Source of the DNA: Candidatus Latescibacterota bacterium
GTDB lineage: Bacteria > Latescibacterota > UBA2968 > UBA8231
DNA: 64,000 bases
NCBI GenBank assembly: GCA_965204725.1
Contig: OZ242005.1
Location: 1,280,001-1,344,000, forward strand
Direction of reading: 5' to 3'
Position numbers and translations under genes: made by a program. A model generated the notes under the pieces. That model saw nothing but the letters and a program-made list of their open reading frames with translations, did no database searches and had not been told where the DNA came from. Shown here piece after piece: positions 13,801 through 41,237 of this stretch. Each line of letters opens with the position of its first letter. Positions within the stretch are counted from its first letter, which is position 1.

Positions 13801-13966
13801 CGGATGGGATCAAGCCGACTTTGACCGCGACCGACAATTTGTGGCTGAGCAAGGGCTGGCCGATGGCGCGGCGACGGTGTACGTCAATGGGGACTCCTGC
13901 ACTCCCGGAGCCATAGCGGTAGAACCGACGTTCAAAGCGCGAATGTTCGAGGAGGTGGCGACATGA
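10832..13966 (+). CDS. mod: Type III restriction-modification methyltransferase subunit Mod
   Basis: DLDFGIYRIMN, CIYIDPPYN, ILDYFAGSGTTGHAV, RKFILIEMG; upstream of a Res-type helicase. Confidence 0.9.
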   Translation: MADAIGKFQQLLRDLFQFDCADLDFGIYRIMNYKREAIEKFIEEKLPDSIASELDSGSLAEQAQIAEEMAEVALQIEEMLGEDALDAHGNLAETYHGTRGGKKYLKLQKKAVGGLSRAAVEVSIYNHLYAFFSRYYQDGDFISKRRYSKHQHYAIPYNGEEVYLHWANSDQYYIKTGEHFHDYNWKAPDGVAVHFRIKTADVEQNNVKGDKRFFLPLAEEAKWDADAREITIPFEYRPLTATEIKTYGSQKQQDKIIAEALDAIPQQLGQATDALAALTGERRRDGKDESVSHLEYHLQQYTRRNTSDFFIHKDLAEFLSRELDFYLKSEVLNLDQMTVAGEGVAEGWFQQLKLIKLIGNQVIEFLAQMENFQKMLWEKRKFVTETQYCIALGSIDATLYADIAAHDAQWDEWRELFHIDEAETHLFNSNKNGHEKRIDFLKTHPTLVLDTKHFESDFVDRLLASFDDIDEMTDGLLVHSENWQALNLLTDRYREEVMCIYIDPPYNTDASPILYKNGYKSSTWISLLDNRLQTSRLFLTENGVLVAAIDDEQYRELSFLLSSTFDNQLLGTILVRTNPSGRPTKSGYSVAHEYLLYVGQGPESSIGRMPPTEEQMARFSMREEGAVFEWRNLRREGSNSDRAARPALYYPIYIGGESIRVPKMTWNEAAEEWVVKEKPRTGEQVVFPDNGNGIQKTWRWEWKKIMNSLAELSVRKDQSGQDYVYYKRRLNEEGVASMSCWFDAKYSAVEHGTKPLKDLFGESIFPNPKSIHAVVDSIYIAGGQQEDVHILDYFAGSGTTGHAVINLNREDGGQRKFILIEMGEYFDTVLLPRIKKVAFAPEWKDGKPKRDATPEEAQRSPRIVQYIRLESYEDALDSIAFDHKAGQLKLEEQFDDYLIKYMLQWETKGSATLLNVAKLARPFTYRLRVHTNGETQERTADVPETFNYLLGLNVRTRRVHEDDGRRYLVYRGETRDAPGRNVAVIWRETDGWDQADFDRDRQFVAEQGLADGAATVYVNGDSCTPGAIAVEPTFKARMFEEVAT

Positions 13967-14229
13967 ATGCGAAACAGAAGGTATCAGGTGATCTCATGCT
14001 GAATTGGGATACATGCACGGCTATCGAACGACATCCCGACAAAGTGAGCGGAACTTGGGTGTTTCGCGGAACGCGCGTTCCCGTATATGCTCTGTTTGAG
14101 AATCTGCGAGAGGGTGCTTCCACCGATCAGTTTCTCAATTGGTTTCACGGCGTTGAAGAGTGGCAGGTGAAAGCCGTTTTGGATCACGAATCAAAGGCTC
14201 TGAGGAATTTCTGTGAAAATTCTGTTTGA
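13963..14229 (+). CDS. DUF433 domain antitoxin (VapB45-like); true start may be ATG 13996
   Basis: IERHPDKVSGTWVFRGTRVPV..LFENLREGAS..QFL.WF, typical of DUF433. Confidence 0.85.
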   Translation: MNAKQKVSGDLMLNWDTCTAIERHPDKVSGTWVFRGTRVPVYALFENLREGASTDQFLNWFHGVEEWQVKAVLDHESKALRNFCENSV

Positions 14230-14245
14230 CCAAGGACAGCTTTGA
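14213..14245 (+). pseudogene. N-terminal relic of DUF5615/PIN-like toxin
   Basis: GTG-start frame VKILFDQGQL* overlapping the DUF433 end; matches the M(K/R)ILFDQG start of usual DUF433 partners. Confidence 0.65.
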
Positions 14246-14285
14246 ACGCCATGTCGAGTGTGCGGCTGTTCGCGGAGGTTACAAG

Positions 14286-14603
14286 ATGAACGCGAAAATC
14301 GAGATTTCGAGAGACGCGATTGCCGCGTTCTGCCAGCGCAACCATATCCGGCGCATGGCGTTCTTTGGCTCCGTGCTGCGCGACGATTTCGGGCCAGAGA
14401 GCGATGTGGATGTGCTGGTGGAATTTGAGCCGGGAACGAGCATTGGCTACATGGGACTGATGAGATTGGAGATTGAACTGGGCGAAGTCTTGGGGCGAAA
14501 AACAGATTTGCACACCTTCAAGGAGGTTGAAGAGAATCCTAACTGGCTGATCCGGGAAGAGATACTCAATTCGGCGGAGGAACTATATGAGCAAACGCGA
14601 TGA
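14286..14603 (+). CDS. Minimal nucleotidyltransferase (MNT) antitoxin
   Basis: FFGSVLRDDFGPESDVDVLVEF; RBS GGAGG before ATG 14286. Confidence 0.92.
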   Translation: MNAKIEISRDAIAAFCQRNHIRRMAFFGSVLRDDFGPESDVDVLVEFEPGTSIGYMGLMRLEIELGEVLGRKTDLHTFKEVEENPNWLIREEILNSAEELYEQTR

Positions 14604-14949
14604 CAGGGTAAGCCTCGTCGATATGCTTATTCACGCAAGGGAAGCAGTAGATTTATTGGGTGAGGCAAGCGCGGATGAGCTGAAAAGTAACCGGGTCGTG
14701 CAACTGGCCTTGATGAAGTTGGTGGAAATTGTCGGCGAAGCCGCCAACAGGATCTCTCCAGCGACGCAACAACGCCATCCAGAAATTCCTTGGCCCCTGA
14801 TAATCGGAATGCGTAATCGGATCGTTCACGAATACGATAACGTTAATCTAAACATATTGTGGAGCACGATAACGAACGAATTGCCGCCGCTTATCGATCA
14901 CCTGAAAGCAATCGTTGGGGAAGGATCTAGCGATGCCGCGCCGCTCTAG
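14587..14949 (+). CDS. HEPN/DUF86 (HepT-like) ribonuclease toxin
   Basis: EIVGEAA...EIPWPLIIGMRNRIVHEY (Rx4H motif), adjacent to MNT. Confidence 0.92.
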   Translation: MSKRDDRVSLVDMLIHAREAVDLLGEASADELKSNRVVQLALMKLVEIVGEAANRISPATQQRHPEIPWPLIIGMRNRIVHEYDNVNLNILWSTITNELPPLIDHLKAIVGEGSSDAAPL

Positions 14950-17900
14950 GCCAAAGGACACAATGTCTGCCGCCAAGCTGGAACAGCGACTGGTCCTATT
15001 GGCTTGGCTGAATGAACGGCTGGGCTATACAGAGAACCGCGATCTCTTAGCGGACATGAAGCAAGCCGATGAAGGCTTTGACGCCGAGGGCCGCAGCCGC
15101 ATCTACGCCCGGTTGGCGTCCCGATTGAGCCGCCTAAAGGACATTTCGCTGGAGGACTTAGAGCGGTACGACGCCAATATCCGCAACCATCTAACGGCGA
15201 TGAACAGGGGGCGGCTCCAGCCCATCTCCCTGCGCTACTTCCAATATCTGGCGGCCCTATACACTGAAATTTTTCTCGACTGGTACTTCAATCGCCGCGT
15301 CGTGCTGTTGCGCTCGCTGAACGATTTGGTCAGGCGGCGCAATGTCAACCGTTCCGCCCAAGAGGCACGAGAAACGGAATTTGCCGCGGCGGATTTGTGC
15401 AAACTGGCGTTCTGGATGGCTACTGGCAGCGGCAAGACGCTCATCCTGCACCTGAACTACCGGCAATTTCTCCATTACAACAGCAAGGCGTTGGACAACA
15501 TCCTGTTGATCACGCCTAACGAAGGGCTGAGCGAGCAGCATTTGGCGGAACTGCAAGCGTCCAACATCCCCGCGTCGCGGTTTGAACTGAACAAAAGTAG
15601 CTTGCTGGGGTCTGGGCGAAACGCCATTGAGGTCACCGAGATTACCAAGTTGGTTGAGGAAAAGCGGGGCGGTGGGATGCGCGTACCCGTAGAGGCGTTT
15701 GAAGGCCATAACCTAATTTTTGTCGATGAAGGACACAAAGGCTCCGGCGGCGATGCTTGGCGCAAAGTTCGGGACGCGCTGGGCGAGACCGGGTTCACCT
15801 TTGAATACAGTGCGACCTTTGGGCAAGCCCTGACCGCGGCGAAGAATGACGCGCTGACGGCGGAATACGGCAAAGCCATCGCGTTTGACTACTCCTATCG
15901 CTACTTCTACGGCGATGGCTATGGCAAGGACTTCCACATCCTCAACTTGCAACAAGAAACGACCGCCGACCGGACCGATAGGCTGTTGCTCGCCAACCTG
16001 CTCTCCTTTTACGAGCAGCACCTCGTCTTTGTCGAGCAGGCCGAGGCGTTCCAGCCCTACAATCTGGCCCGGCCGCTGTGGACCTTCGTCGGCGGCAGTG
16101 TCAACGCGGTCTATACGGAAAAACGCCAATCCCGGAGCGACATTCTGACGGTGGTGCGGTTCCTACACCGGCTGATAGCGGATGCTACTTGGGCGACGGA
16201 TGCGCTTGAACAGTTGCTGAAGGGCAACTCAGACCTGTGCGACGCGGATGGCAACGACATTTTCGCCGACAAATTTGAGTACCTGCGCGGGCGGGATGCG
16301 GCCGCAGTGTATCGGGATATACTGGCGAGGGTGTTGCACGCTTCCGCCGGTAGTGGACTACACCTGTGCGATATACGCGGTAGCGGCGGCGAATTGGGCC
16401 TCAAAGTCGGCGGGGCGGAGGATTACTTCGGCCTCATTTACATCGGGGATACGACAAAATTCAAGAATCTGGTCGCGGCGGACAACGCTGGCATTGTCAC
16501 TGAGGAGGATGCTTTCGCTGGCTCCCTGTTTGACAGGCTCAACGATCCGGGGACGACCGTTGAGGTGCTGATTGGCGCTAAAAAATTTATCGAGGGTTGG
16601 GATTCTTGGCGCGTGTCCAACATGGGGCTGCTCAACATCGGCCGGAGCGAGGGATCGCAGATAATCCAGCTATTTGGGCGCGGCGTGCGTTTGCGCGGTC
16701 GAGATATGACGCTGAAGCGCAGTTCCGCGCTGGACGGACGGCATCCCGATTGCATCAAGTTGTTGGAAACCCTCAACATCTTTGCTGTCCGCGCCAACTA
16801 CATGGCCCATTTCCGGGACTATCTGGAGCGGGAAGGCGTGGAATTGGATGGGGTGTTGGAACTGCCGTTGTTCGTTAAGCCCAACGAGGATTTTCTGAAT
16901 AAGGGACTGGTCATTCCCCGAGTGAACGATGGGCGGAGTTTCGTCGCCGGTAAAGCGGTTATGCTGAAGCCTGATCCGAATGTGCGCCCAGTGTCCGTTG
17001 ATATGTCCGCAAAGGTACACAGGATGGATAGCAGCGAAGGAGGGCCAATAGATGCCGAGGCGAGTGCCGGCACAGAAGGCCCCATACCGCCCGAAAGCCT
17101 CGCGCTTGTGGATTGGGAAAGCGTCTATCTCGACCTGCTTGCATACAAGGAGCAAAAGGGGTGGAGAAACTTGATCGTCCAACCGGACGCGCCGCGAAAC
17201 ATTTTGGCATATCGCAGCGAATCCGGTGCGCTGTACAGCCTGATAGCGGATAAGGCCGTAGTACAGCCGCAAAGTTTCGACGACTTGAAGCGGCTGAAAG
17301 AGGCGGCGACCAACCTAGTGCGGAAGTACGCCGACGCGCTCTATTGGCACCGACGCGAGCAGTGGAATGCAGCAAACTTGGTCTATAAGACGCTGGACGA
17401 GCGCGAGCCTAACCTGCGGTTCAACGTCAGCGATGCCGATAGCAGCCCCAGTGGGCAGTATCTAGTCCGTGTGCCGCGGTCAGAGACCGCATTGATACAG
17501 AAGATTGAAGCACTCATCGCGGATAGCTACAAGTTATACGACGACGAGGCCGCGGCGGGTGCTTTGCCGCGCATCCACTTTGACCGGCACTTATATCAAC
17601 CGCTGCTACTAAGCGATGACAAAGTAGAAGTATCCCCACCGGGGTTAAACAAAAGCGAACAGCAGTTCGTGCGGGACTTGCGGGAATACTGGAACGAAGA
17701 GCAAGGCAACGCACTGGTCGGCGCGGACCTATTCCTGCTGCGGAATCAGAGCCGCGGCCAAGGGGTGGGGTTCTTTGAGAACAGCGGCTTCTATCCCGAC
17801 TTCATTCTCTGGATTAAAGCCGACGACGCCCAGCACATCGTGTTCGTCGAACCGCACGGGATGCTTCAGGCCAACGCGTACCAGCACGACGACAAAGCGC

Positions 17901-18190
17901 GCCTGCACGAGCGGTTGCCGGCCTTAGCCCACGACATATCCCAGCGCTCCAACGTATCAAACGTAAGCCTCGACTCCTTCATCGTTTCGGCGACGCCCCA
18001 TAAGGAATTGCACAAGCGTTACGATGATGGATCGTGGGACCGGGAACGCTTCGCCCAAGCGCACATCCTCTTTCCCGAGCGCACTGGCGAGTACGATTAC
18101 TTGGCGAAAATCATTGAGGGCGCACCAAGCACTAACATCGGAGGCAGAAATGACCAACCATCCCACGGCGGCGGAACGCGCTTTCTTTGA
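14933..18190 (+). CDS. res: Type III restriction enzyme Res subunit (SF2 helicase plus nuclease)
   Basis: FWMATGSGKT, FVDEGH, EYSATFGQ, QLFGRGVR, C-terminal FYPDFILW..IVFVEPHG. Start 14933 or 14963. Confidence 0.88.
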   Translation: MPRRSRPKDTMSAAKLEQRLVLLAWLNERLGYTENRDLLADMKQADEGFDAEGRSRIYARLASRLSRLKDISLEDLERYDANIRNHLTAMNRGRLQPISLRYFQYLAALYTEIFLDWYFNRRVVLLRSLNDLVRRRNVNRSAQEARETEFAAADLCKLAFWMATGSGKTLILHLNYRQFLHYNSKALDNILLITPNEGLSEQHLAELQASNIPASRFELNKSSLLGSGRNAIEVTEITKLVEEKRGGGMRVPVEAFEGHNLIFVDEGHKGSGGDAWRKVRDALGETGFTFEYSATFGQALTAAKNDALTAEYGKAIAFDYSYRYFYGDGYGKDFHILNLQQETTADRTDRLLLANLLSFYEQHLVFVEQAEAFQPYNLARPLWTFVGGSVNAVYTEKRQSRSDILTVVRFLHRLIADATWATDALEQLLKGNSDLCDADGNDIFADKFEYLRGRDAAAVYRDILARVLHASAGSGLHLCDIRGSGGELGLKVGGAEDYFGLIYIGDTTKFKNLVAADNAGIVTEEDAFAGSLFDRLNDPGTTVEVLIGAKKFIEGWDSWRVSNMGLLNIGRSEGSQIIQLFGRGVRLRGRDMTLKRSSALDGRHPDCIKLLETLNIFAVRANYMAHFRDYLEREGVELDGVLELPLFVKPNEDFLNKGLVIPRVNDGRSFVAGKAVMLKPDPNVRPVSVDMSAKVHRMDSSEGGPIDAEASAGTEGPIPPESLALVDWESVYLDLLAYKEQKGWRNLIVQPDAPRNILAYRSESGALYSLIADKAVVQPQSFDDLKRLKEAATNLVRKYADALYWHRREQWNAANLVYKTLDEREPNLRFNVSDADSSPSGQYLVRVPRSETALIQKIEALIADSYKLYDDEAAAGALPRIHFDRHLYQPLLLSDDKVEVSPPGLNKSEQQFVRDLREYWNEEQGNALVGADLFLLRNQSRGQGVGFFENSGFYPDFILWIKADDAQHIVFVEPHGMLQANAYQHDDKARLHERLPALAHDISQRSNVSNVSLDSFIVSATPHKELHKRYDDGSWDRERFAQAHILFPERTGEYDYLAKIIEGAPSTNIGGRNDQPSHGGGTRFL

Positions 18191-19537: not shown

Positions 19538-21865
19538 CTAGTAGGCCACGGCCACGACGCGCCTCGCGCTGCGCTCTCCGGCGTCGCCAGTGACTTGCAG
19601 TTCGGCTATGTAGAGGCCGGGCGGTACGCGCTGGCCGTCTAGGTCGCGGCCGTCCCAGTGATAGGCGATGTCGCCTGCCTGACCGGCCTGCTCTAGAATA
19701 AAAAGCGGCTGGCCGGACAAATCGTAGATCCGCAGGTGCAAGGGGCGGGCGGAAAGCACGTTGATGAGGTCGAAGGAGATGCGGAGTTGGTCGTTGATCC
19801 CGTCGCCGTTGGGCGTGATGAGCGCGGGGCTGAAAGAGAGGTCGGCAAAGAGTTGGTCGGCGATGGGCAGGCGCACGATGTTGGAGCTGCTCTCGACTTG
19901 GGGGGAGGCGTCGCCCGGATCGACGAGTTGTCGCGTCGGCGTCTTTTGGCTGTCTTCGAGAAAGGCGTCAAAGCGGGTCGCCTGCACATAGACCGGCGCG
20001 GTAAAGCGCAGCTCGACGAGTTGGCGGCTGCGAATGCGGCGCGGGAACGTGGCGCGAAAGCCCTGAGCGAGAGCCTCAACGGCGACCTCGACCCGCTCGC
20101 CATCGACCAAGGCGGCGTCAAAGTGGGGGACTGTGGAAGCTTCAATTGCGATCCGGTCGAAGCCGTCTTGGGTCGTTGTGGGCCGCAGGAAATAGGAAAA
20201 CAGGGTCCTTTGGCCGGGCGCGACCTCGAGGGGGAACACCTCGCCGACCACCTCGGCAGCCAGCGGGTCGCTGAAGTTGACGGCCAGCCAGTCGAAGCGG
20301 GGTGCCTGCGTGGGGCTGTCGGACACCAAGCGCACATCGAGTTCCATAAAGCGGCGCGGCGAAGGGGACAAAAAGGCCGCGCCCGAAGCGCGGTAGAGGT
20401 TGCTATAGGGGCTCCAGTCGGTCCCGGCGATGCGCGTAGTGTCGATTTTGCCCTTGAAACTGGGGATTAGTTTGCCGTAGCGCTTCTCGCTTACTTGCCG
20501 GCCGTTTTTATCGTAAAAGGTGTATTGCTCCACGACCTCGTTGCCCGTGCGCGAGCGGATTTCGATGTGAGTGCCCAATGGGGTCTGGGCCTGCCACTCA
20601 ATCGAGTTGAGATTTTTGCCGCGGCCCAAGTCAATCAGCGGCGAGCGGAGACGGACCGCGAGCGGATAGCCCTCGCCGTACACTTGGATTTCTTCGGCCG
20701 AGCCGTTGGCGTAGCAGCCCCAGCGCGAGGAGGCGTCGGGCAGGGCCGCAGCACAGGCGGCATCCCATATTAGCCAAACGATGCGGACGTAGCGGGCCGG
20801 TAGGGTGGGGAATTGGTGGTCGGCCAGCCCGGCGTTGTGGTTTTCGCTGCTCGCTTCCCCGGCAAAGTGCCGCGTCCATATTCGGGTGCCGTCGGGGGCG
20901 CTGGTGCCGTCCGAGGTGAGGACCTCGTAGTTTTTGTAGCTGAAGGAGCGCGAGCCGCTGGCCCCGGCCCGGGTGCGGAGGAGGTGTTCGCCAAAGCCGC
21001 CGCGGATGGCCACGCCGGTAATCAGGCGCACGAAATCCACTGGATAAACCGCCCCTAAGTCGATGGTGATGTGGCTGTAGGTGTTGTAGGTGTTGCGCGG
21101 CTCGCGCCCATTGCGCCAGCGGTCGAAGATGGAGCCATCCACTAGGTTGAGCGCGTTGCCCAAGGTAACCTCTTCGGCGCGGACAAAGGCGTCAATGACC
21201 ACGTCGATGGCCCCGCCGCGCTCGATGAGGTTGAGGATGAGGTTGTCGCCGATGCTCTCGACCTCAACGGCGACGAGCCGAGCGTTGGGAACGTGCTTGA
21301 GGTTGCGGATTTGCAGGTAGCGGATCGGCGTCAGGTAGAGCGCGTCGCCCGGGGCGTAGGCGACGCGGTGGCGCGTGTTTTCCTTAAAGCGTTCCTTAAT
21401 GCGGTAGATCAGGGAGCCGGCGACCGGATTGGCGACGTGGTCGAGCTGGGGCTCGCCGGCCGAGAGCAAGAGGTCGAACAGCTCAAAAGGGGGCGCGTCG
21501 TTGGCAAAGACGAGCGCGATGCTGTGCGCTGAGACGCTGCGGCCGAGGTCTATTTCCACGAACCAATCGGCCGGATCGTCCGTCGGGTTGGGTGCCCAGC
21601 CGGTCGCCGGGTTGCCGTCTAGGAGGGCGCGGGCGTCGCCGGGGTTGGAGCCGGCCCGATGGATGCCGCCGCCAAAAGCCGAGGCGTCGCGCACGGCATC
21701 CACGCCCTTTTGGACGCGCACGGGCTGGATTGCGCCGCTGGCCGCGATTTGGACCGCGCCCACCGGCACTTGCCAGTCGCGCCAATCGCGCCTCGAGTCA
21801 AAGCGCAACTGGTCCGCGCTCGCGCTACCGGCGAGCAAGACGAGGAGAGCGCAGGCCATGGACAT
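19538..21865 (-). CDS. Secreted protein, discoidin-like domains plus C-terminal FlgD-Ig/CHU_C-like domain (paralog 1, subtype A)
   Basis: Signal peptide ending ASA-DQLRFD; LLDGNPATGW..EIDLGR; ITPNGDGIND, IYDLSG, WDGRD..G..VPPGLY; ends VAVAY. Confidence 0.85.
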   Translation of the reverse strand: MSMACALLVLLAGSASADQLRFDSRRDWRDWQVPVGAVQIAASGAIQPVRVQKGVDAVRDASAFGGGIHRAGSNPGDARALLDGNPATGWAPNPTDDPADWFVEIDLGRSVSAHSIALVFANDAPPFELFDLLLSAGEPQLDHVANPVAGSLIYRIKERFKENTRHRVAYAPGDALYLTPIRYLQIRNLKHVPNARLVAVEVESIGDNLILNLIERGGAIDVVIDAFVRAEEVTLGNALNLVDGSIFDRWRNGREPRNTYNTYSHITIDLGAVYPVDFVRLITGVAIRGGFGEHLLRTRAGASGSRSFSYKNYEVLTSDGTSAPDGTRIWTRHFAGEASSENHNAGLADHQFPTLPARYVRIVWLIWDAACAAALPDASSRWGCYANGSAEEIQVYGEGYPLAVRLRSPLIDLGRGKNLNSIEWQAQTPLGTHIEIRSRTGNEVVEQYTFYDKNGRQVSEKRYGKLIPSFKGKIDTTRIAGTDWSPYSNLYRASGAAFLSPSPRRFMELDVRLVSDSPTQAPRFDWLAVNFSDPLAAEVVGEVFPLEVAPGQRTLFSYFLRPTTTQDGFDRIAIEASTVPHFDAALVDGERVEVAVEALAQGFRATFPRRIRSRQLVELRFTAPVYVQATRFDAFLEDSQKTPTRQLVDPGDASPQVESSSNIVRLPIADQLFADLSFSPALITPNGDGINDQLRISFDLINVLSARPLHLRIYDLSGQPLFILEQAGQAGDIAYHWDGRDLDGQRVPPGLYIAELQVTGDAGERSARRVVAVAY

Positions 21866-21919
21866 GATGTATTGCAAAGTACTTTTACCGACCGCGTAAA
21901 TCAACTTGGACGCTAAGAC

Positions 21920-22741: not shown

Positions 22742-22835
22742 CGGAGGTGCTTTTGGCACTGGACGAATAGAGGCTTTGCCACCGCCCTTATTTGAGAATA
22801 GTATGTAGCCCACAAACCAACCTGTGGAGGAAGAC

Positions 22836-24056
22836 ATGAGCGAAAAAACCAAGGGCGAGGTCGTGCGACTGGCGATGGTGGGTTGCGGCGGCATGGCCGG
22901 AGCGCACTTGCGGGGGTACGAAGAGTTGCTAAAAAAGGGCGAGACGCGGTTTTGCATTGTCGCGGCCGTAGATGCCGTGCCCGCACGGGCTGAGGAGTTT
23001 GCGGCGCGCATCAATGGGTTCGCTGGCTGGGAAGTCCAGACCTATACCAGCGTGGCCGAGCTGCTCGCCGGGGAAGACGCGCTCGATGGGGCCGATATAT
23101 GCAGCCCGCACGGCTTGCACCACGTGCTGGCCTGCGAGCTGCTAGAGGGCGGGGTTCACGTGCTGGTCGAAAAGCCGATTGGGGTCACCGTGCGGGCCTC
23201 AAAGAAGATCGCGCAGACGGCGCAGCGCTGCGGGCGGGTCGCGGCCACGGCCGAGCAATGCCGCCGCTCCTTGGGCCAGCGCACCATCCACTGGGCCTTT
23301 AAGGACGGCCTGTTGGGCGCGCCGAAAATGTGGTGGGCCGTGCAGGCCGGGTGGCGCGATCCAGCGGTCGTGCCCAATTGGCACTGGCGCGTCGATCGCA
23401 AGTTGGGGGGGTGCGGCATGGTCATGGACAGCGGGGCGCACTGGGTTGACACCATGCGCTATTGGTTTGGCGAGATTGAGAGCGTGTACGCCCGGGTGGA
23501 GCAGATCTACCCGCGCCCTCATCGCCGCGGCGAGGCCCTGGTCGATAGTGCGTCCGAGGACTTTTGGACCAGCATATTCAACTTCAAAAGCGGATTAATC
23601 GGCACGTGGTCGTGGACCATCAGCGCGCCCGGCAAGGGGTTTACTCAACTGACGCTGAGCGGCGAGAAGGGATCGATCATCGACGCAGACATCTTCCACC
23701 CAGCCGCCTCTCAGGAGCGCGGCGAGTGCCAACTCGCCAGCGGTGTCACGTACAGCATGTCTAAGCTGCAAGAAATGTATTTGGCGACCCTGAGCGAGGA
23801 AGAAAAGGACGCGCTCTTCCCCTATGGAATCACCGGCGGGGTGACGCTGGAGTTGTGGGACTTTATCGACGCGCTGAGTGCAGGGCGACCGGTGGAAATC
23901 GACGCGGAGGAAGGCTTGCGGAGCAAGGCCGTCAGCGAGGCCATTTACGAATCCGGCCAGTCCGGGCAGGTGGTACAGGTTGCCGATGTGTTGGCCGGCA
24001 AAATCGACGCGTACCAGCGCGACATTGACCAAGCGTGGGGGCTAGATGCCAATTAG
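22836..24056 (+). CDS. Gfo/Idh/MocA family oxidoreductase
   Basis: VGCGGMA, HVLVEKP, GGCGMVMDSGAHWVD. Confidence 0.9.
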   Translation: MSEKTKGEVVRLAMVGCGGMAGAHLRGYEELLKKGETRFCIVAAVDAVPARAEEFAARINGFAGWEVQTYTSVAELLAGEDALDGADICSPHGLHHVLACELLEGGVHVLVEKPIGVTVRASKKIAQTAQRCGRVAATAEQCRRSLGQRTIHWAFKDGLLGAPKMWWAVQAGWRDPAVVPNWHWRVDRKLGGCGMVMDSGAHWVDTMRYWFGEIESVYARVEQIYPRPHRRGEALVDSASEDFWTSIFNFKSGLIGTWSWTISAPGKGFTQLTLSGEKGSIIDADIFHPAASQERGECQLASGVTYSMSKLQEMYLATLSEEEKDALFPYGITGGVTLELWDFIDALSAGRPVEIDAEEGLRSKAVSEAIYESGQSGQVVQVADVLAGKIDAYQRDIDQAWGLDAN

Positions 24057-25058
24057 GCGGTGCCACAGCCGCTTTAGGGCTTGGTCGGTGCGCTGGGCGT
24101 CGAACGGGTTGGTGCGCTCGATGTCGGCGAAGTGTGCGGGGCGGGCTGGGTCTGGCAACAGGCGGAATGTGAAGAGGTACGCGCCGGTGGAGTCGAGATA
24201 GAAGTCGGAGCGACCAAAGCGCAGGTCGTAGAAGTAGAGGGCATCGGCGCGGTGCTCCACCCGATAGTACCCGCGCGAAAACCACAACAGGCGTTGGACG
24301 GGTGGATCGTCGAGTTGGGGGGCGATGAGCGGGGTGTTGCGCTCAATGCGGCGGAAGCGGATGGCCGAGTCGGCGTCGAGCAGGGAATACAGCCCGGCCC
24401 ACAGGTGGTCGCCCTCGCCGGCCAAGCCCGACCACAGCACGGCGTTGAACGGAGTCGGCGCGATGTGCAGACGCTCGTAAGCAATGCCTTGATCGGAGAG
24501 GGCGCGGGCAAAGGTGCTGCGCACGTGCAGGCAAGTCGCGGTGGTGGCAAGCAGGTACGCCGTGCTCAAGCCAAGGCCCAGCGCGTTGAGCCGCCGCCGC
24601 CAGCGCGGTCGCCGCTGGCACAGGGCGGCGATGAGGCCGCCCGCCAAGGGCAGGGTATAGAGCGGATCGATGACGGAGATGGAACTGAAGGCGACCGGGT
24701 ACTTGCTAAACGGACTGAATAGTTGGGTGCCGTAGCCGGTGAAGCAGTCGAGGAGGGCGTGGGTGAGAAGTGCCCAAAACCCAAGCGCGGCCCACTCGCG
24801 CCAAGGCGCGGCGCGGTGGAGCTTGGACAGCGCCCACCCCACTCCGAGGCTGCCGACTACGGCAAAGAGCAGGGAGTGCGACATCCAGCGGTGAAAGCCC
24901 AGTTGGTCGGTCTCCGACAGAAAGACTGCTCCCAACACATCAAGGTCTGGGAGGATGCCCAGGGCCGCGCCCCACAGGGGGGCTTTGTTGCCAACCTTTT
25001 TGCCTAAAACCTTTTCGCCAACGGCCGCGCCGAGCGCGATTTGCGTAACGCTATCCAT
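24042..25058 (-). CDS. Membrane metal-dependent hydrolase (YdjM-like)
   Basis: MDSVTQIALGAAVGE, LPDLD, HRWMSHS, THALLDCFTGYGTQ, IDPLYT. Confidence 0.88.
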   Translation of the reverse strand: MDSVTQIALGAAVGEKVLGKKVGNKAPLWGAALGILPDLDVLGAVFLSETDQLGFHRWMSHSLLFAVVGSLGVGWALSKLHRAAPWREWAALGFWALLTHALLDCFTGYGTQLFSPFSKYPVAFSSISVIDPLYTLPLAGGLIAALCQRRPRWRRRLNALGLGLSTAYLLATTATCLHVRSTFARALSDQGIAYERLHIAPTPFNAVLWSGLAGEGDHLWAGLYSLLDADSAIRFRRIERNTPLIAPQLDDPPVQRLLWFSRGYYRVEHRADALYFYDLRFGRSDFYLDSTGAYLFTFRLLPDPARPAHFADIERTNPFDAQRTDQALKRLWHRLIGI

Positions 25059-25154
25059 AGAGGTTTTTGATTTGCAGAGAACGTACAAAGAAAACGCCGC
25101 GTGTGCATCTTGGAGGCCGACCCAGCGCGATAAACCGGCCGCGCACTTGGACCG

Positions 25155-26759: not shown

Positions 26760-26760
26760 T

Positions 26761-26859
26761 GTAATGTTTAACGCGCAGGATTTCTTGCCGGGTTCCACCC
26801 TATTTAATATGCAGATTCTAACGCCTGCCCAAGCCATACGGCGGCTGAAGAAAGGATGA
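26761..26859 (+). pseudogene. C-terminal relic of PIN-family toxin
   Basis: VMFNAQDFLPGSTLFNMQILTPAQAIRRLKKG*, resembling the PIN_3 tail VTFNxxDFxPxxxxFGIxVLTPxxxL; ATGA overlap with the next gene. Confidence 0.65.
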
Positions 26860-27110
26860 AGATCATGGCTAGCACGAACCCGTATTCCCTCCATCTACTG
26901 GCCTCGCTCAAATCCGAGGCCGAAAAAGTGGCGGCAGCCGAGGGCACGACGCTAAACCAGTTTATCAACGTGGCCGTAGCGGAGAAGCTAGCGGCTTTGC
27001 GGACCGCCCGCTACTTCCAAGACCGGGCTGCTGGTGCCGATTTGGAGGCTTTTGACCGTCTCTTGGCAATGGCAGGTGATGAGCCACCGCGCCTTGAGGA
27101 TGAGATGTAA
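26856..27110 (+). CDS. RHH/HicB-like antitoxin
   Basis: YSLHLLASLKSEAEKVAAAEGTTLNQFINVAVAEKL. Start 26856 or 26865. Confidence 0.8.
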   Translation: MKIMASTNPYSLHLLASLKSEAEKVAAAEGTTLNQFINVAVAEKLAALRTARYFQDRAAGADLEAFDRLLAMAGDEPPRLEDEM

Positions 27111-27785: not shown

Positions 27786-28105
27786 CCGAGAAGATTCTGT
27801 TTGAAAAGAGTTCAGGCAATGTGTTTGAGGATCTCGGCTTGCCAGACGCAGAGGAATTATTTCTTAGGGCGACGCTTGGATTTAAGGTGTTTCAGATTAT
27901 AGAAGATCGGAAGCTGACCCAAACAGAAGCCGCGGAGATTTTAGGGGTTAAGCAACCTGAAATATCCCGGTTGAAGAAGGGCGAGTTTAACCATTACAGC
28001 GTTGAGCGGTTAATGACGTTTCTCAATCGACTGAATCTCGATATTGAGATTCGCATTATTCCCTCAGAAGATAGAGAAGGACAGCAGCGAGTTGTTGCTG
28101 TTTAG
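27782..28105 (+). CDS. XRE-family HTH antitoxin
   Basis: SSGNVFEDLGLPDAEE, LTQTEAAEILGVKQPEISRL; ATGA overlap with the toxin gene. Confidence 0.9.
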   Translation: MTEKILFEKSSGNVFEDLGLPDAEELFLRATLGFKVFQIIEDRKLTQTEAAEILGVKQPEISRLKKGEFNHYSVERLMTFLNRLNLDIEIRIIPSEDREGQQRVVAV

Positions 28106-28181: not shown

Positions 28182-30098
28182 ATGCGAAAGACCTGTATCC
28201 GACTTGTGCTCGCCCTCGTTTGCCTGACTGGCGGCGCGGATGCGCTGACGATTTATCGGATCGGCGGGGCGTCGCTGCCGCGGCCGGAGTTGGCCGAGGG
28301 AGTGGAGTTTGTGCAGCTCGATTGGGGGGCGGTGGAAGCGGCCCAGCATGGCCACGTCGAATCCCTGAAAATCGATGCGGACTTCGTCGAGCCGGAGCAA
28401 CTGGACCCGTCGGTGAACCTGACGCCGCGCCTCAAGGAGCGCGGAGGCCGGGTGCAGACGCTGGTCTGGCGGGGCTGGGAGCAAAGCGGCGACACCGAGG
28501 CCGTGCTCTGGGACGAAGATGTCGAGACCGTTTTCTTGGGCGACGGGCACTGGACCACCTCGGGCATCGGCGTCCGCAACAAGAGCCTAATTTTCGAGTT
28601 CGGAGGCAACTTCACGGTGGAGCGCGTCAAGTTCTATCCGCGGGCGCGCTTTGAGGAAGAGCGTTTTCTCCAGCGCTTTATCATCGGCATCAGCGACGGC
28701 AACCCGCTCAAAGAGGGCACACGCGAGTACTCGGCCGGGACGCGCGGCTCCTTCTTCGACTTCGACATCGTGCATCAGGCCACGGAGAACACGACCTCGG
28801 TGGTCGAACTGGACCTGCCGCCGGTGCCGATCCGCCGCATGCTCTTTGAAGCCCCGGAAAACACTCAGGGCATCTGGGAAATCGCCGAGTTTGAAATCTA
28901 CGGCAAGGGCTTTACGCCCACGGCGCGCTACGTGTCCAATGTCCTCGATTTGGGCGGGCGAGCCGCGCTGGGCGAACTTAGCTGGGGTAGCCAAGTCGAT
29001 CCGGGCGCGCAAATTGAGCTGAGTATGCGCGCCGGCGACGACAGCGACCCCAACACCTATTGGCGCAGCACGTTCCGCGGCGATGAGCGGACTCGACTCG
29101 ATGCCCGGGGGCGGCCTTTGACCCGGCGGTCGTACAATCGGCTGGAGCGGGCGCAGCAGGCCGGAATGACGCCCGATACTGAAAACTGGGAAGGCTGGAG
29201 CGCGGCCTACGACTTGGCGCTGGGCAGCGCACCCATGCAGGGGACGCGACCGCGGCAATTCGTGCAGCTTAGGGCCCGCTTCCAATCTACGGTAGAGGCT
29301 GGTGGGCGGCTGAACTTCGTGCAATTCGCCGCGTCTAGGCCGCCGATGGCCTCCTTAGTTTCGGCCGAGATCGCGCCGACCCTAGCGCCGACGGGCGCGG
29401 CGACCGAGTTCACGTACATGCTGCTGCCGCGACTGGCGGCCGAAGACTTGGGTTTCGACGCCATTGAGATTGACACGCCGACCCAGGCCGAGGGCATTGA
29501 CGCGGTGCGCTACAGCGGCGAAGAGGTGGCCTTTGCGGTGCGACGGCTCGATGAGCGCGGCTTTGAGATTGAAGTGCCGCGGATCGATCAGGCCCGCGAT
29601 GGCGAGCTGATAGAAGTGGTCTTTCGCTGCGAGGTGTTCAAGTTCGGGACCCTGTTTGCCGGTCGCGTCCACGACAGCACGAGGCCGGGGGAAGTGCGCC
29701 AAGTGGTGACGCCGGGCGAGGTGGTCGAGCGGGTCGAGGGCAATACCCTGAGCGTGGGGCTGACCCAGATCGCCGAGCAGGTGGTCGGCGCGCTCCGGCT
29801 GGTGCCCGCCGCGTTCTCGCCCAACGGCGACCAGATCAACGACGCCGTGCGGATTGAATACGACTTATTGAATGTCAGCGGAAATGTCCAAGTAGCGGTG
29901 GTGCTCTACGATTTGCAGGGGGCGCGGCTCGGCGAGGTCTTCCGCGGCCCGGCGCAGAGCGGACCGTTTGCCGCCGTGTGGGATGGCCGGGACCCAACCG
30001 GCGCGCTGCTCGCGCCCGGGCTGTACGTCCTGCGCCTCGAAGTAGAGACCGACGGCGGCACCAAGGCCCGCTCGCGCATCGTCGCGCTGGCGTACTGA
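28182..30098 (+). CDS. Secreted FlgD-Ig/CHU_C-CTD protein (paralog 2, subtype B)
   Basis: Signal peptide ADA-LTIYRIGG; EIAEFEIYGKG; FSPNGDQIND, LYDLQG, WDGRD, APGLY; ends VALAY. Confidence 0.85.
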   Translation: MRKTCIRLVLALVCLTGGADALTIYRIGGASLPRPELAEGVEFVQLDWGAVEAAQHGHVESLKIDADFVEPEQLDPSVNLTPRLKERGGRVQTLVWRGWEQSGDTEAVLWDEDVETVFLGDGHWTTSGIGVRNKSLIFEFGGNFTVERVKFYPRARFEEERFLQRFIIGISDGNPLKEGTREYSAGTRGSFFDFDIVHQATENTTSVVELDLPPVPIRRMLFEAPENTQGIWEIAEFEIYGKGFTPTARYVSNVLDLGGRAALGELSWGSQVDPGAQIELSMRAGDDSDPNTYWRSTFRGDERTRLDARGRPLTRRSYNRLERAQQAGMTPDTENWEGWSAAYDLALGSAPMQGTRPRQFVQLRARFQSTVEAGGRLNFVQFAASRPPMASLVSAEIAPTLAPTGAATEFTYMLLPRLAAEDLGFDAIEIDTPTQAEGIDAVRYSGEEVAFAVRRLDERGFEIEVPRIDQARDGELIEVVFRCEVFKFGTLFAGRVHDSTRPGEVRQVVTPGEVVERVEGNTLSVGLTQIAEQVVGALRLVPAAFSPNGDQINDAVRIEYDLLNVSGNVQVAVVLYDLQGARLGEVFRGPAQSGPFAAVWDGRDPTGALLAPGLYVLRLEVETDGGTKARSRIVALAY

Positions 30099-30109
30099 GA
30101 GGAGCGGGA

Positions 30110-32746
30110 ATGCGCTGCATGGCCGTCGTTTTGCTAGGGGTCGCCGCGGTCCATGCCCAAGGAGGCTACCGGCTCACCGCCGACCAGCTCGTCATCGACC
30201 GCGCCGCGCACTGGCGCGCTTGGGAGTTTCCGGTGGGTACGCTGACGATCGATCCAAGCGGTGCGGTGACGCCGTTTGCCCTGCGCCGCAACATCGACGC
30301 CACCCAAGACATCGTCCACTTCTTGCGCCTGCATCCGCCCGAAGACCTCGCCCGGGACAAGGCCGTTGAGGCCATTGAACTCGCCGATGCCATAGAAGCG
30401 GGTTCCAACGCGCCCGGCGTGCTCAACGCGCTCGACGGGGACTTGGCGACCTACTGGGAGCCTGAGCCGGTCGGGGATGCTGCCGAGTTGGGTTCGCATT
30501 GGTGGTTTACCATCGATCTGGGCCGGTTGGTAATCGCCAAGCTCATCGTGCTCAAGTTCGTGGAAGAAGGGCGCGGCGATCCTTTCCTACAGTACGACGT
30601 GCTGATCTCCGACGGCGAGGTGCCGGAGAAGTTTATCTCTTCGGAGGAGCCGGAGTTCGATGTGGTGTGGCGCACGCTCAAGCCGAACAAGACCGAGCGG
30701 CGGCTGGAAATTTCCCTCGGCGAGCGCGCCGCCGCCGAGGAGCAGGAGCTGTCGGACCAGCCGCTCAACGCCCCGCCGACTTCGGCGGTTTCGACCGCGC
30801 AGCAAGAGTTCGTCGGCACTGGAGTGCGGCTGGTGCAGGTGGTGGTGCGCGGCTCGGATTTCGACCGCGGGTTCGAGGTCAGCCCGCCGGAGTACGAGGC
30901 GTTGCCGGCGGCTGAGCAGGGCGCGGTCGTCTATTCCAAGCTACAGCGCGACGGCCGTCGCACCGAGGTCGTTGCGGCCGATTACGCGCAGTTACCAGCC
31001 GACCAGCAGGGCGGGATCGCGTACTATCGCTGGGAGCGGCCCCGGCTGGCCGAACTCGAGGTTTGGCACGAGGGCGACGACGCGCTGATTGCCGCCTTGG
31101 CCCGGGGCGGCGACGTCTTTGCCTCGCAAGGGCTGCCCGTGGGACGGACCATCGACGGCAACGTGCAGACTTATGTCGATCTGATCTTCTCCTTCGACCG
31201 CCAGACCATTCCCGGTCCCGAAGGCCATTTGAGTTTCGACCTCGGCTCGACGTACTGGCTCGACACCTTTCGCATTGCCTACGGCGGCCAAGCGATCCGC
31301 GACCGCTTTAGCTTTCCCTCCTATCGGCTCGACGCCTCGGACGGGGCGCTCAATGCCGACGGCAGCCTCAAGTGGACCACTGTGGCCCGTCGCCAACAGT
31401 CGAGTACGCGCAAGGAATACGAGGGGCACGATTTCGGGCTGATTAAGACGCGCTTTTTTCGCATCGTGTGGGAGCAAATCATCGTGCCCGTCGGCGGGCA
31501 CCGGGGATTTCCCGCTTCGGTGCAGCTCTACGGCGAGGGGTTTCAGCCCGAGGTCTGGCTCGAGTCGGGCTTGGTGCGGCTGGGCGGGCGGCGGAATCTG
31601 CTGTCGATAGCATGGGACGCCGATGCGCCGCCGGGTACTCGGGTGCTGGTCCAGACGCGCACGGGCAATGAGTTGAGCGAGGTGCTGCACTATTTTAAGA
31701 AGGACGGCACGGAGATTTCCGAGAGGGAATACAACAATCCGACGCTCTTGGACATATTCAAGGGGCCGGTCGTCGCCGAGGAGGTGGAAGGGGATGACTG
31801 GAGCGGCTGGAGCCAGCCCTACGAGGACCCAACGGGCAGCGCGATTGCCTCGCCCAGCCCGCGCGAGTTCCTCAAGGTGCGAGCGACTCTGCTGTCTGAG
31901 GACCCGGCCATCCGCGCCGCGTTGCGGTCGATCCGCCTCAATTTTACCAGTCCGGTGGCCGAGGGGCTCGTCGGGGAGATCGCGCCGTTCCGGGTCGATT
32001 CGCTGGGCGTGGAGCGCTCCTTTTCTCTGTACGTGCGGCCGCAATTCAACCGCCGCGACCCGGGCTTCGATCAGTTGCTGCTGGTCGCGCCGGCCGATAT
32101 GACGCTCAGGTTTGCCGGGCTGTATGCGGGCCGAGTTGGGGCCGAGCGAGAAGTGGAGGGCGTTGAGGTCGTGCCTACGGGCGCGGACAGCTTGCGCCTC
32201 TCTTTTGCCGCGATTCGGCCCAATGCGGGCATTGAGGTCGTGCGCCTCGACTTTCGCACCGCGCTCTTTGGCATCGGCGCGGTGCTGCGTGCCTCATTGC
32301 AGCACAGTGCTGGGGGCGAGGGCACTTGGCAGCGGGTGGATCCGGGCAACGCGCTCGACGCGGTGGCGGGTAATACGACGACGCTGGTGGGCGATCCCAC
32401 ACGCGGGGACCTGCTGCTCGACGTGGAGGTGCGCCCGCCGGCCTTTACGCCCAATGGCGATGGGGTCAACGACCGTGCGGTTTTCGCCTTGAAGGTCGTG
32501 CGTCTCGACGACGATGGCCCGCTACAAGTCGCCATCTACGATCTGAGCGGTCGGCTGATGCGCCAACTTTCCGAGCAGCGAGCGACGACTACTGGGCAGT
32601 ACGAGATTGCTTGGGATGGCACGGACGAGCGGGGGGGGCGCGTCCCGCCGGGCGTGTATTGTGCGTTGCTCAGGGTGGCGGTGGACAGCGGGGGATTGAG
32701 CGCGGCGCGGACTGAGGTGTTGCGCACGGTGACGGTGGCCTATTGA
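30110..32746 (+). CDS. Secreted FlgD-Ig/CHU_C-CTD protein (paralog 3, subtype A)
   Basis: RBS AGGAG, signal peptide; HWRAWEFPVG; TIDLGR; QTRTGNE; SPSPREFL; FTPNGDGVND; ends VTVAY. Confidence 0.85.
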   Translation: MRCMAVVLLGVAAVHAQGGYRLTADQLVIDRAAHWRAWEFPVGTLTIDPSGAVTPFALRRNIDATQDIVHFLRLHPPEDLARDKAVEAIELADAIEAGSNAPGVLNALDGDLATYWEPEPVGDAAELGSHWWFTIDLGRLVIAKLIVLKFVEEGRGDPFLQYDVLISDGEVPEKFISSEEPEFDVVWRTLKPNKTERRLEISLGERAAAEEQELSDQPLNAPPTSAVSTAQQEFVGTGVRLVQVVVRGSDFDRGFEVSPPEYEALPAAEQGAVVYSKLQRDGRRTEVVAADYAQLPADQQGGIAYYRWERPRLAELEVWHEGDDALIAALARGGDVFASQGLPVGRTIDGNVQTYVDLIFSFDRQTIPGPEGHLSFDLGSTYWLDTFRIAYGGQAIRDRFSFPSYRLDASDGALNADGSLKWTTVARRQQSSTRKEYEGHDFGLIKTRFFRIVWEQIIVPVGGHRGFPASVQLYGEGFQPEVWLESGLVRLGGRRNLLSIAWDADAPPGTRVLVQTRTGNELSEVLHYFKKDGTEISEREYNNPTLLDIFKGPVVAEEVEGDDWSGWSQPYEDPTGSAIASPSPREFLKVRATLLSEDPAIRAALRSIRLNFTSPVAEGLVGEIAPFRVDSLGVERSFSLYVRPQFNRRDPGFDQLLLVAPADMTLRFAGLYAGRVGAEREVEGVEVVPTGADSLRLSFAAIRPNAGIEVVRLDFRTALFGIGAVLRASLQHSAGGEGTWQRVDPGNALDAVAGNTTTLVGDPTRGDLLLDVEVRPPAFTPNGDGVNDRAVFALKVVRLDDDGPLQVAIYDLSGRLMRQLSEQRATTTGQYEIAWDGTDERGGRVPPGVYCALLRVAVDSGGLSAARTEVLRTVTVAY

Positions 32747-32750
32747 AGGC

Positions 32751-32798
32751 GGCGATCATGCAGAGTACGATAACATACCCGATGCGAGAAAGGCGTGA
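32751..32798 (+). pseudogene. C-terminal relic of HigB toxin
   Basis: GDHAEYDNIPDARKA* matches the GTHAEYDKID tail of HigB; lies directly upstream of higA. Confidence 0.75.
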
Positions 32799-32801
32799 AT
32801 C

Positions 32802-33233
32802 ATGCACCGCTTAGATCCTATTCGCACTGAAGCTGATCACGAACGGGCTATGGGCCGTATTGATGAGCTGTGGGGATCGCCTATAGGCACTCCGCAGGGG
32901 GAAGAATTAAAAGCCTTATTCCTGTTGGTAGAAGCCTATGAGCGTGAGTGCTATCCGGTGCCTGATGTAGATCCGCTCGTCGCCATTGAGTTCGCTATGG
33001 ACCAAGCAGGGCTGACCGCAAAGGATGTGGAATCGTTACTGGCCCAGAACGGTGTAGTGGATGCCCGTATCGACGACATTCTATCAGGCAAGCACCCACT
33101 GAGGTTAGATGTAGCCAAAGCTCTTCATCGACACTTGAACATATCGCTGGAGGATCTCATTAAAAGAGGTGGAGCGAAAAAGAGAACAGAACAGACTAGG
33201 AAGATCGCCAAGCCCTCGACCGCGCCGTCTTGA
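32802..33233 (+). CDS. higA: HigA family HTH antitoxin
   Basis: PIRTEADHERAMGRIDELW...GTPQGEEL..L.LLVEAYE...P...DPLVAIEFAMDQAGLT. Confidence 0.85.
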   Translation: MHRLDPIRTEADHERAMGRIDELWGSPIGTPQGEELKALFLLVEAYERECYPVPDVDPLVAIEFAMDQAGLTAKDVESLLAQNGVVDARIDDILSGKHPLRLDVAKALHRHLNISLEDLIKRGGAKKRTEQTRKIAKPSTAPS

Positions 33234-37061: not shown

Positions 37062-37076
37062 AGTGCCTAGGATACC

Positions 37077-40381: not shown

Positions 40382-40390
40382 GAGGGTCTC

Positions 40391-40840
40391 GTGAACTCGA
40401 ACCCGCCAAAACACATCGTCGCGGCTGGAATGCTCGTGGAACGGGGAGCCGAGGTGCTGCTAGTTAGGACAGAACGGCGGGGATGGGAGTTTCCGGGCGG
40501 CCAAATCGAAGAAGGGGAGTCCGTCCTCGATGGGGTCATCCGCGAAGTCAGAGAAGAGGCCAACGTCGTGGCTTCGGTTGATCAACTAGTCGGCGTGTAC
40601 AGCAATCTCAGCAATCACCGAGTGATATTCGATTTCCTTGGTTCTTGGCTGTCTGGGGACGCTCGGATAGGAGCAGAGACGTGCGATGTGGCATGGGTTC
40701 AAAAGGCAGAGGCCGGTAAGATGATAGTGCATCCTATTTACAGCCAGAGACTGAAGCAACTTTTGTCTTATGATGGACGAGTTTTGTTTCAGTCGTACGC
40801 GACATCCCCCTTCGCGATACGTGCTCAGAAGTTTGTATAG
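40391..40840 (+). CDS. NUDIX hydrolase
   Basis: Nudix box PGGQIEEGESVLDGVIREVREEA. Confidence 0.92.
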   Translation: MNSNPPKHIVAAGMLVERGAEVLLVRTERRGWEFPGGQIEEGESVLDGVIREVREEANVVASVDQLVGVYSNLSNHRVIFDFLGSWLSGDARIGAETCDVAWVQKAEAGKMIVHPIYSQRLKQLLSYDGRVLFQSYATSPFAIRAQKFV

Positions 40841-40892
40841 CCGTCCTAAAGAACTTGAAGGCATGAAATGTTGATCGGCACACCTCTGAGGC

Positions 40893-40953
40893 GTCATTCC
40901 CGCGCAAGAACGTCACCCCGTGCCCCGACACGGGGCGAGAATCCAGTCTTGAA
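40893..40953 (+). repeat. Palindromic repeat copy 2 with a nested second hairpin
   Basis: GTCATTCCCGCGCAA[GAACGTCACCCCGTGCCCCGACACGGG]GCGAGAATCCAGTCTTGAA. Confidence 0.75.
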
Positions 40954-40983
40954 TGATATGGGATTGCTATAACAGGCTCTACT

Positions 40984-41208
40984 CTACGCTCTTTCTGCCA
41001 ATTTCTTCGGTCGGGTCTCAAACTGAAAATCCATCAAGTTGACCGGATAAGGCCGTTTAGAGAGATACAGAATTTCAATGCCGATCACCTGATCGGCAGC
41101 CCCATAGTCAAGGATGACGCCGGGAGCGACTTCCTCGGAGTCTATGGTCGGTCCATCGCTCAGGCGTAGGTGCAGCGCATCGGCCTCTTCGTCGATCTTT
41201 AATTTCAT
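40984..41208 (-). CDS. DUF2283 domain protein (putative antitoxin)
   Basis: MKLKIDEEADALHLRL...DSEEVAPGVILDY...VIGIEIL. Confidence 0.88.
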   Translation of the reverse strand: MKLKIDEEADALHLRLSDGPTIDSEEVAPGVILDYGAADQVIGIEILYLSKRPYPVNLMDFQFETRPKKLAERA

Positions 41209-41237
41209 AATCGGCTCCTCATTGCGCGATCAAAAAC
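41205..41237 (-). pseudogene. C-terminal relic of DUF4258-like partner/toxin
   Basis: VFDRAMRSRL* with ATGA overlap into DUF2283; an in-frame stop lies 8 codons upstream. Resembles the VFFDRxM(K/R)xxL tail of DUF4258 partners. Confidence 0.55.

Follow-up and report, generated by a model that had tools for sequence, protein, structure and literature searches.

Why does a bacterial chromosome carry several antitoxin genes that each lie against a short stub of their partner toxin? This question is raised by a 64-kb stretch of contig OZ242005.1 (assembly GCA_965204725.1, positions 1,280,001 to 1,344,000) from a Candidatus Latescibacterota bacterium, hereafter the window, which we mapped by open reading frame (ORF) listing combined with Pfam, NCBIfam and PADLOC scans. 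The window holds seven toxin-antitoxin (TA) loci: two intact pairs, four antitoxins with an intact ORF beside a truncated toxin, one antitoxin alone and not a single toxin alone. The four orphan antitoxins and the relics of their partners are DUF433 with DUF5615 (site 1), a ribbon-helix-helix (RHH) protein with a PIN-family toxin (site 2), a HigA-like protein with HigB (site 3) and DUF2283 with DUF4258 (site 4). An earlier note made from the DNA letters had proposed a partner relic beside each of these four antitoxins, and anchored alignments, hidden Markov model (HMM) and motif tests, as well as a related genome (L015), bore this out. The TA genes and relics have a G+C content of 44 to 58%, compared with 62 to 66% for the flanking genes, and are thus acquired DNA. 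We consider toxin-first deletional erosion of horizontally acquired type II TA cassettes to be the best explanation for the orphans and stubs, with a probability of about 75%. Orphan antitoxins without orphan toxins are also what survivorship alone predicts.

Natural partners were sought by tblastn of each orphan antitoxin against plasmids, followed by reading of the annotated neighbours of the matches. These neighbours gave full-length PIN-family, HigB, DUF5615 and DUF4258 toxins with the expected gene order and overlaps, and protein searches added 68 DUF4258 sequences and 120 listed DUF5615 sequences. In the anchored test, each relic was compared with the family termini by Smith-Waterman alignment, using as a null all same-length stop-preceded six-frame peptides of the window, except for the site 1 head, for which start-codon 9-mers were used. 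HMMs built from four plasmid PIN toxins and four HigB toxins were also ranked over 2,292 six-frame fragments. At site 2, the relic aligned with the C-terminal ~32 residues of PIN-family toxins from plasmids, whose genes lie before those of homologous antitoxins with an overlap of 4 nt. The alignment retained the invariant N, D, F, F and P columns, while the N-terminal conserved Asp/Thr columns were absent. None of the 1,137 null tails reached its score, and it ranked first with the PIN HMM (profile positions 110 to 139 of 140). The adjacent RHH antitoxin covered plasmid antitoxins over 93 to 99% with 48 to 54% identity among the best tblastn matches; the ~140-aa toxin expected before it is gone and the 4-nt overlap (ATGA, relic stop on antitoxin start) is kept. 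The site 3 relic aligned with HigB C-termini through a G.HAEYD.I motif, was equaled by none of 1,806 null tails and also ranked first with its HMM (profile positions 87 to 95 of 100), representing the 15 C-terminal codons left of a toxin of ~100 aa. Its HigA-like neighbour matched 347 plasmid records by tblastn, with a query coverage of 80% or more in 308, and the genes next to these matches were annotated as HigB family toxins. Pfam (E up to 10) and NCBIfam (E up to 1) scans of the relic peptides of sites 2 to 4 gave zero matches because these peptides are too short for such scans. Of note, the HigA-like orphan also matched the N-terminal 129 positions of the PADLOC profile PD-Lambda-2_B (402 positions, a candidate defence system) with an E-value of 2.6e-24.

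Table 1. Features of the window discussed in the text, with positions counted from its first base.
Feature	Position	Strand	Evidence or remark
Type III methyltransferase, mod, 1044 aa	10832-13966	+	PADLOC MTase_III E 2.9e-180; Pfam N6_N4_Mtase
DUF433 antitoxin-like gene, intact, orphan (site 1)	13963-14229	+	Pfam DUF433 E 2.1e-12, profile 1-54 of 56
DUF5615 (PIN-like) toxin head relic, VKILFDQGQL, 10 codons and stop (site 1)	14213-14245	+	
MNT and HepT, intact pair	14286-14603 and 14587-14949	+	Pfam NTP_transf_2 E 1e-14, HepT-like E 5e-24
Type III restriction subunit, res	14933-18190	+	PADLOC REase_III E 6.7e-166; start ATG overlaps HepT end
AAA ATPase	25155-26759	+	
PIN-family toxin tail relic, 31-32 codons and stop (site 2)	26761-26859	+	Starts 2 nt past ATPase stop
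RHH antitoxin, intact, orphan (site 2)	26856-27110	+	Plasmid homologues annotated 'HicB family'
Second DUF2283 gene, orphan	27133-27375	+	Pfam DUF2283 E 9e-14
Gp49/RelE-type toxin and HTH_37 antitoxin, intact pair	27420-27785 and 27782-28105	+	Pfam
HigB toxin tail relic, GDHAEYDNIPDARKA, 15 codons and stop (site 3)	32751-32798	+	Starts 4 nt past stop of 922-aa surface protein
HigA-like HTH antitoxin, intact, orphan (site 3)	32802-33233	+	tblastn, neighbours, PADLOC
DUF2283 antitoxin-like gene, intact, orphan (site 4)	40984-41208	-	Pfam DUF2283 E 9.5e-17
DUF4258 toxin remnant filling spacer (site 4)	41205-41350	-	Tail VFDRAMRSRL and stop, 41237-41205; KHPE, 41269-41258, other frame

Relatives were collected in one genome scan anchored on an oxidoreductase gene of the window (22824-24053), which returned 80 loci, numbered here with the prefix L, of which 21 had 88 to 95% anchor identity. 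Their record titles name Candidatus Latescibacterota and some Gemmatimonadota metagenome-assembled genomes, and the 10-kb flanks span 12.8 to 34 kb of the window. When the window TA proteins and the plasmid toxins were searched locally by tblastn against these 80 loci, only L015 and L026 gave matches. At site 1, the mod stop overlaps the DUF433 start (ATGA), and the 17-nt overlap between DUF433 and the relic reproduces the geometry of the DUF433/DUF5615 pair of Synechocystis pSYSG. The head resembles the family start MKILLDEC and alone scores modestly, as 43 of 2,999 start-codon 9-mers did equally well or better and a DUF5615 HMM left it outside the top six window fragments. Its identity as a DUF5615 relic is settled by the closest relative, L015, in which the last 31 DUF433 residues are 94% identical and positions 14134-14235 of the window are matched at 95.1% DNA identity before the sequences diverge. 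As the homology stops at 14235, about eight codons of the relic are original. The L015 frame continues for 33 codons and matches residues 1 to 31 of the Synechocystis toxin (E 3e-6). Hence, a DUF5615 frame overlaps the 3' end of DUF433 as in the known pair, and the full-length toxin (about 106 to 116 aa) is missing.

The comparison of site 1 among relatives revealed different outcomes. In L015, the 33 DUF5615 codons are joined straight to the last ~45 nt of a HepT gene, followed by res, while in L026 about nine degenerate DUF5615 codons precede an intact MNT/HepT pair, mod is reduced to 47 codons and res is broken into fragments. The restriction-modification genes of this island decay by the same large deletions, and the whole island (window 10724-18149) is missing from L021 and L089. 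The endpoints of the toxin deletion differ among the three genomes (window, L015, L026), which indicates that the ancestor had DUF433, DUF5615, MNT and HepT between mod and res and that each genome underwent a separate toxin deletion. Cassettes were also exchanged, since the window MNT and HepT proteins share only 64% and 55% identity with those of L026 between flanks that are 79 to 89% identical in DNA, and the HepT tail of L015 is of the L026 type. The NCBIfam matches of the window pair to MntA and HepT fall under the curated cut-off. The Type III mod-res operon that houses these TA cassettes is complete, and its genes overlap at their stops and starts; in Synechocystis pSYSG the DUF433-DUF5615 pair is likewise found directly upstream of a restriction S subunit gene. 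In L015 (213-292), a 17-nt sequence at the junction of the HepT end and the res start, CCTAGCGATGCCGCGCC, is duplicated around a GC-rich insert of ~46 nt with a hairpin-like inverted repeat, which looks like a small insertion with target duplication.

Other TA loci of the relatives were searched by Pfam analysis of 150 of the 153 small ORFs from the 21 close loci (the three shortest were dropped) and by local tblastn. The leads were VapB, PIN, RelB-like and ParE-like proteins. Seven of the 80 loci have a RelBE locus shortly before a class III aminotransferase gene; it consists of a RelB-like antitoxin and an 83-codon RelE-type toxin, and the toxin is intact in L018 and L020. In L064, a 254-nt segment has been excised exactly between 7-nt repeats (CGCTGAA) at the stop codons of the two genes. 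A deletion of 282 nt is common to L023 and L083, one of 281 nt in L021 also takes out the final antitoxin codons, and L090 shows a complex loss of 275 nt; the RelB C-termini are replaced in both L021 and L090. The toxin was therefore lost through four deletion alleles in five genomes. Together with the three endpoints at site 1, these alleles support the previous proposal that toxin deletion was repeated and independent. A VapB-PIN pair was intact in six loci and eroded in three: in L026, the toxin N-terminus including the first conserved Asp is deleted and the remainder is fused to VapB, and L030 and L089 have kept just C-terminal VapB relics of 18 and 27 codons plus 2 to 9 PIN codons, indicating that antitoxins are also lost, later. 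Hence, an intact state and several degraded states of one locus were found among the relatives at site 1, RelBE and VapBC. L064 also carries an 84-aa gene with a ParE-like toxin domain (2931-3182).

The relics at sites 2 and 3 start 1 to 4 nt past the stop of an unrelated gene, as the earlier note had pointed out, and comparisons support both stops as native. At site 2, homology of the ATPase-bearing relatives to the window stops at position 26760, 1 nt past the ATPase stop, in five of five cases, and blastn of these relatives found no match to the window beyond it. The four full-length ATPase orthologues share the VWGM ending and stop of the window gene, with another gene behind them, and the same terminal residue is found in distant homologues. 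Synteny therefore breaks at this junction, flush with the native stop. We could thus reject the idea that the ATPase lost its own 3' end at the junction. In L019, ~100 nt of the YdjM 5' region (window 25018-25118) are repeated downstream of the ATPase gene (20428-20531), and extra DNA is present between YdjM and the ATPase gene in L015 (2.4 kb) and L019 (6.4 kb). These arrangements raise the possibility that the ATPase gene belongs to a variable insertion. At site 3, the upstream gene ends in VAY, and because all six window paralogues end in Y its stop is considered native, so a lost end of this 922-aa gene was also rejected. An imperfect 17-nt direct repeat (14/17 matches) brackets the HigB relic, with one copy past the upstream stop (32746-32762) and the other at the HigB stop and HigA start (32790-32806). 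It was set aside as a junction signature, being probably due to chance, as five such families occur in 1.2 kb.

At site 4, the DUF4258 tail and DUF2283 share an ATGA overlap. Using 25 of the 64 family members, three of 2,140 null tails scored equal to or better than this tail in the anchored test. The motif F.?DR is found in 60 of 64 DUF4258 tails and in four of 1,995 null tails. A second motif, KHPE, is shared by 26 of the 64 DUF4258 proteins; across all six frames of the window (127,996 residues) it was found at a single place, which lies 35 nt upstream of the tail in a different frame. The remnant is therefore a shrunken and frameshifted DUF4258 gene across the 145-nt spacer, longer than the 10-codon tail, and an N-terminal piece is possible further upstream in the spacer. 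Among 1,475 fragments scored with a DUF4258 HMM, the tail came 136th and the middle piece 392nd, and none of the 3,200 high-scoring segment pairs from a sensitive tblastn with 64 DUF4258 proteins fell in 41150-41400; the identification rests on the anchored and motif tests. A DUF4258 gene of ~85 aa overlapping or abutting DUF2283 is no longer present, and 145 nt are available upstream. Site 4 looks like the product of several small deletions and a frameshift, and the earlier emphasis on clean deletion rather than gradual decay is overstated.

How could such stubs arise? Under toxin-first erosion, the accessory DNA of this lineage (TA and restriction-modification genes) would be trimmed repeatedly by deletions, some of them between short direct repeats. 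Deletion of an antitoxin next to a working toxin would result in cell death. Because antitoxin-first loss kills, survivors would lose the toxin first or both genes together, and the visible intermediates would be an intact antitoxin with a toxin stub on its antitoxin-facing side. The stub would be kept as it overlaps the antitoxin coding end (site 1) or holds the antitoxin ribosome-binding site and the overlapping stop and start (sites 2 to 4). Indeed, the Shine-Dalgarno-like runs for the orphans fall within the relics, which alone would be sufficient to explain why these toxin codons survive. The orphans themselves would be transient and weakly constrained or unconstrained, and any transcription of them would stem from read-through of the gene upstream. 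A consensus promoter scan found no site in the relic regions of sites 2 to 4, and two strong sigma-70-like sites lie just upstream of the intact Gp49 pair (27377-27414).

For the window's own orphans, codon comparison was limited to 31 DUF433 codons, and we turned to RelB in the relatives for signs of selection. Omega (dN/dS) of RelB ranged from 0.21 to 0.62 in 14 of 15 pairs and reached 1.38 for L023 and L083, the sole orphan pair that diverged after toxin loss (common deletion allele), with five non-synonymous and one synonymous changes; that of the adjacent aminotransferase was 0.05 to 0.09 in 15/15 pairs. On these six substitutions in one pair, the evidence leans towards relaxed constraint on RelB orphans after toxin loss. 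Several points weigh against erosion of useless leftovers. All five RelB orphans keep an open frame after four independent toxin deletions, which together with the low omega of most pairs would be compatible with a function still being kept. Synonymous divergence between L020 and L064 is far lower in the RelB module (0.074) than in its flank (0.379), so the orphans and losses may be recent and the post-loss sample is very small; this low divergence suggests recent cassette exchange between species, via recombination at the flanks. The two junctions located 1 to 4 nt past a native stop also count against it, as random endpoints would seldom do so twice. An additional factor may be at work in these flush joins, be it co-transcription being selected for, stop-codon microhomology or the integration of a fragment already truncated, and the excision in L064 demonstrates that such joins can come from repeats across stop codons. 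Lastly, no relative spans sites 3 and 4, and in-place deletion is documented elsewhere (site 1, RelBE, VapBC).

Alternatives to toxin-first erosion were also considered. One holds that the toxins of sites 2 and 3 were never intact here and that illegitimate recombination, or a rearrangement on a larger scale, joined a pre-truncated foreign fragment next to the upstream stop. G+C content falls at both junctions, from 65.7% in the ATPase gene to 49% in the relic and from 66% in the surface protein gene to 52.7% in the relic, and the loss of homology at 26760 in all five relatives, with another gene downstream in the four that were read, as well as the cassette swapping seen at site 1 (diverged MNT/HepT, L026-type HepT tail in L015), agree with such an event. 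However, the informative loci (site 1, RelBE, VapBC) all have an intact state and in-place deletion, an argument from these loci that has nothing specific to sites 2 and 3, and we regard arrival in a truncated form as unlikely. Another alternative is that the orphans are kept by selection as putative anti-addiction or immunity factors, under transcription from upstream genes, against toxins of plasmids, phages and islands. All four orphans of the window have their full length and good ribosome-binding sites. At sites 2 and 3, the relic lies flush against the stop of the upstream gene, and no terminator-like site was predicted on the + strand between that gene and the orphan, which would allow read-through and coupling. 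The persistence of open RelB frames points the same way, and the idea has been discussed for Klebsiella and Escherichia coli orphans in the portions of PMC7192599 and PMC10790755 used here. Nevertheless, the five non-synonymous and one synonymous changes between L023 and L083, the replaced RelB C-termini, the VapB genes reduced to 18 to 27 codons and the failure to find promoter-like sites in the relic regions all argue against maintenance, which we judge quite unlikely. The genome had previously been pictured as banking antidotes, a view that these observations do not support, given that antitoxins erode too and that restriction-modification genes decay alike.

A related proposal, that toxin loss is a selected and mechanistically favored excision through short repeats at stop codons, leaving a set of antidotes coupled to host genes, seems very unlikely to us. 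The earlier suggestion to look for shared junction microhomology led nowhere at these sites, as we found no motif or flanking repeat common to the four junctions. That the relics are chance resemblances in short frames, or assembly artefacts, is hardly credible. They are indeed only 10 to 32 codons long, those of sites 2 to 4, the three with sufficient length for submission, had no Pfam or NCBIfam match, site 4 escaped both the HMM and the unanchored tblastn, and a fifth candidate proposed in the earlier note, MDEAVWPL next to the second DUF2283 gene, had to be rejected at chance level (2,063 of 2,285 null tails scored equal or better). Against this stand the anchored results, the top window-wide ranks of sites 2 and 3, the longer orthologous relic of site 1 in an independent genome and, at site 4, a window-unique motif in the right place and order; artefact is countered by the junction at 26760, which is bracketed on its left by five independent assemblies. 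The chance and artefact reading of sites 1 to 4 is thus largely refuted, and toxin-first erosion remains our preferred explanation.

Some other features of the window deserve mention. The product of the second DUF2283 gene begins with ~22 extra residues ahead of the usual domain start (27133-27200). Six large paralogous surface proteins, with F5/8 type C domains and FlgD-Ig/CHU_C ends, are encoded at 19538-21904, 28182-32746 and 57010-63323, and their C-termini have a similar hydrophobic run, then Y and a stop. Two adjoining Type II-like methyltransferase genes (285 aa, N6_N4; 514 aa, Eco57I-like) with a G+C content of 50 to 53% are found at 3492-5900, with an NYN-domain gene upstream on the opposite strand. 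No restriction enzyme was detected near this pair. The earlier note had counted two methyltransferases without a restriction enzyme; the methylase at 10832 is not of this kind, as its partner is the res gene.

These loci offer a base-level picture of TA cassette death in a little-studied phylum, with one and the same locus intact, cleanly excised, partly deleted or reduced to stubs depending on the species. They support, beyond enterobacteria, the view of chromosomal TA modules as short-lived selfish passengers that are lost toxin-first. For annotation, lone antitoxins beside unrelated genes should not be taken as functional TA or defence systems, and short neighbouring frames can be toxin stubs. 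If stop-flush junctions prove general, they would indicate either a favored mechanism of deletion or selection on the expression of antitoxins. Were the excision proposal true, the antidotes would blunt addiction by incoming TA-bearing elements, or the abortive infection that these trigger.

Saavedra De Bast in 2008 and Mine in 2009 reportedly dealt with anti-addiction modules and the decay of chromosomal ccd, with neutralisation said to have been demonstrated experimentally. As with chromosomal ccd, the antitoxins described here can outlive their toxins and could neutralise a plasmid-borne homologue. Unlike the ccd work, the present case is built from sequence evidence and leans towards relaxed constraint. 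Our literature search returned no paper naming DUF4258 with DUF2283, or DUF433 with DUF5615. In Klebsiella pneumoniae, a median of nine orphan antitoxins per strain was reported (PMC7192599), and orphans of Klebsiella and E. coli are read, in the sections of PMC7192599 and PMC10790755 considered here, as degrading loci, possible anti-addiction factors or regulators. Antitoxins without a working partner are common in these bacteria as in our window, and the present loci are consistent with the abundance of Klebsiella orphans. Those surveys, as far as these sections describe, defined orphans by homology and context and mention no toxin stubs, whereas junctions are resolved here at the base level.

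Toxin-first TA erosion has already been published. In Photorhabdus, the pseudogenised gene of type II TA systems was the toxin alone in 185 cases, both genes in 186 and the antitoxin only in eight (Belot et al., Mol Biol Evol 2026, PMC13617665). The part of that article considered here describes truncated toxin ORFs, intact antitoxins, TA islets in variable spots and a two-step model. Our loci share with it the truncated toxin, the intact antitoxin and the strong asymmetry between them. Compared with what this part of the article covers, they differ by belonging to Latescibacterota, by involving other TA families and by two stop-flush junctions. They also include one relative with an exact repeat-mediated toxin excision and one cassette pair located inside a Type III mod-res operon.

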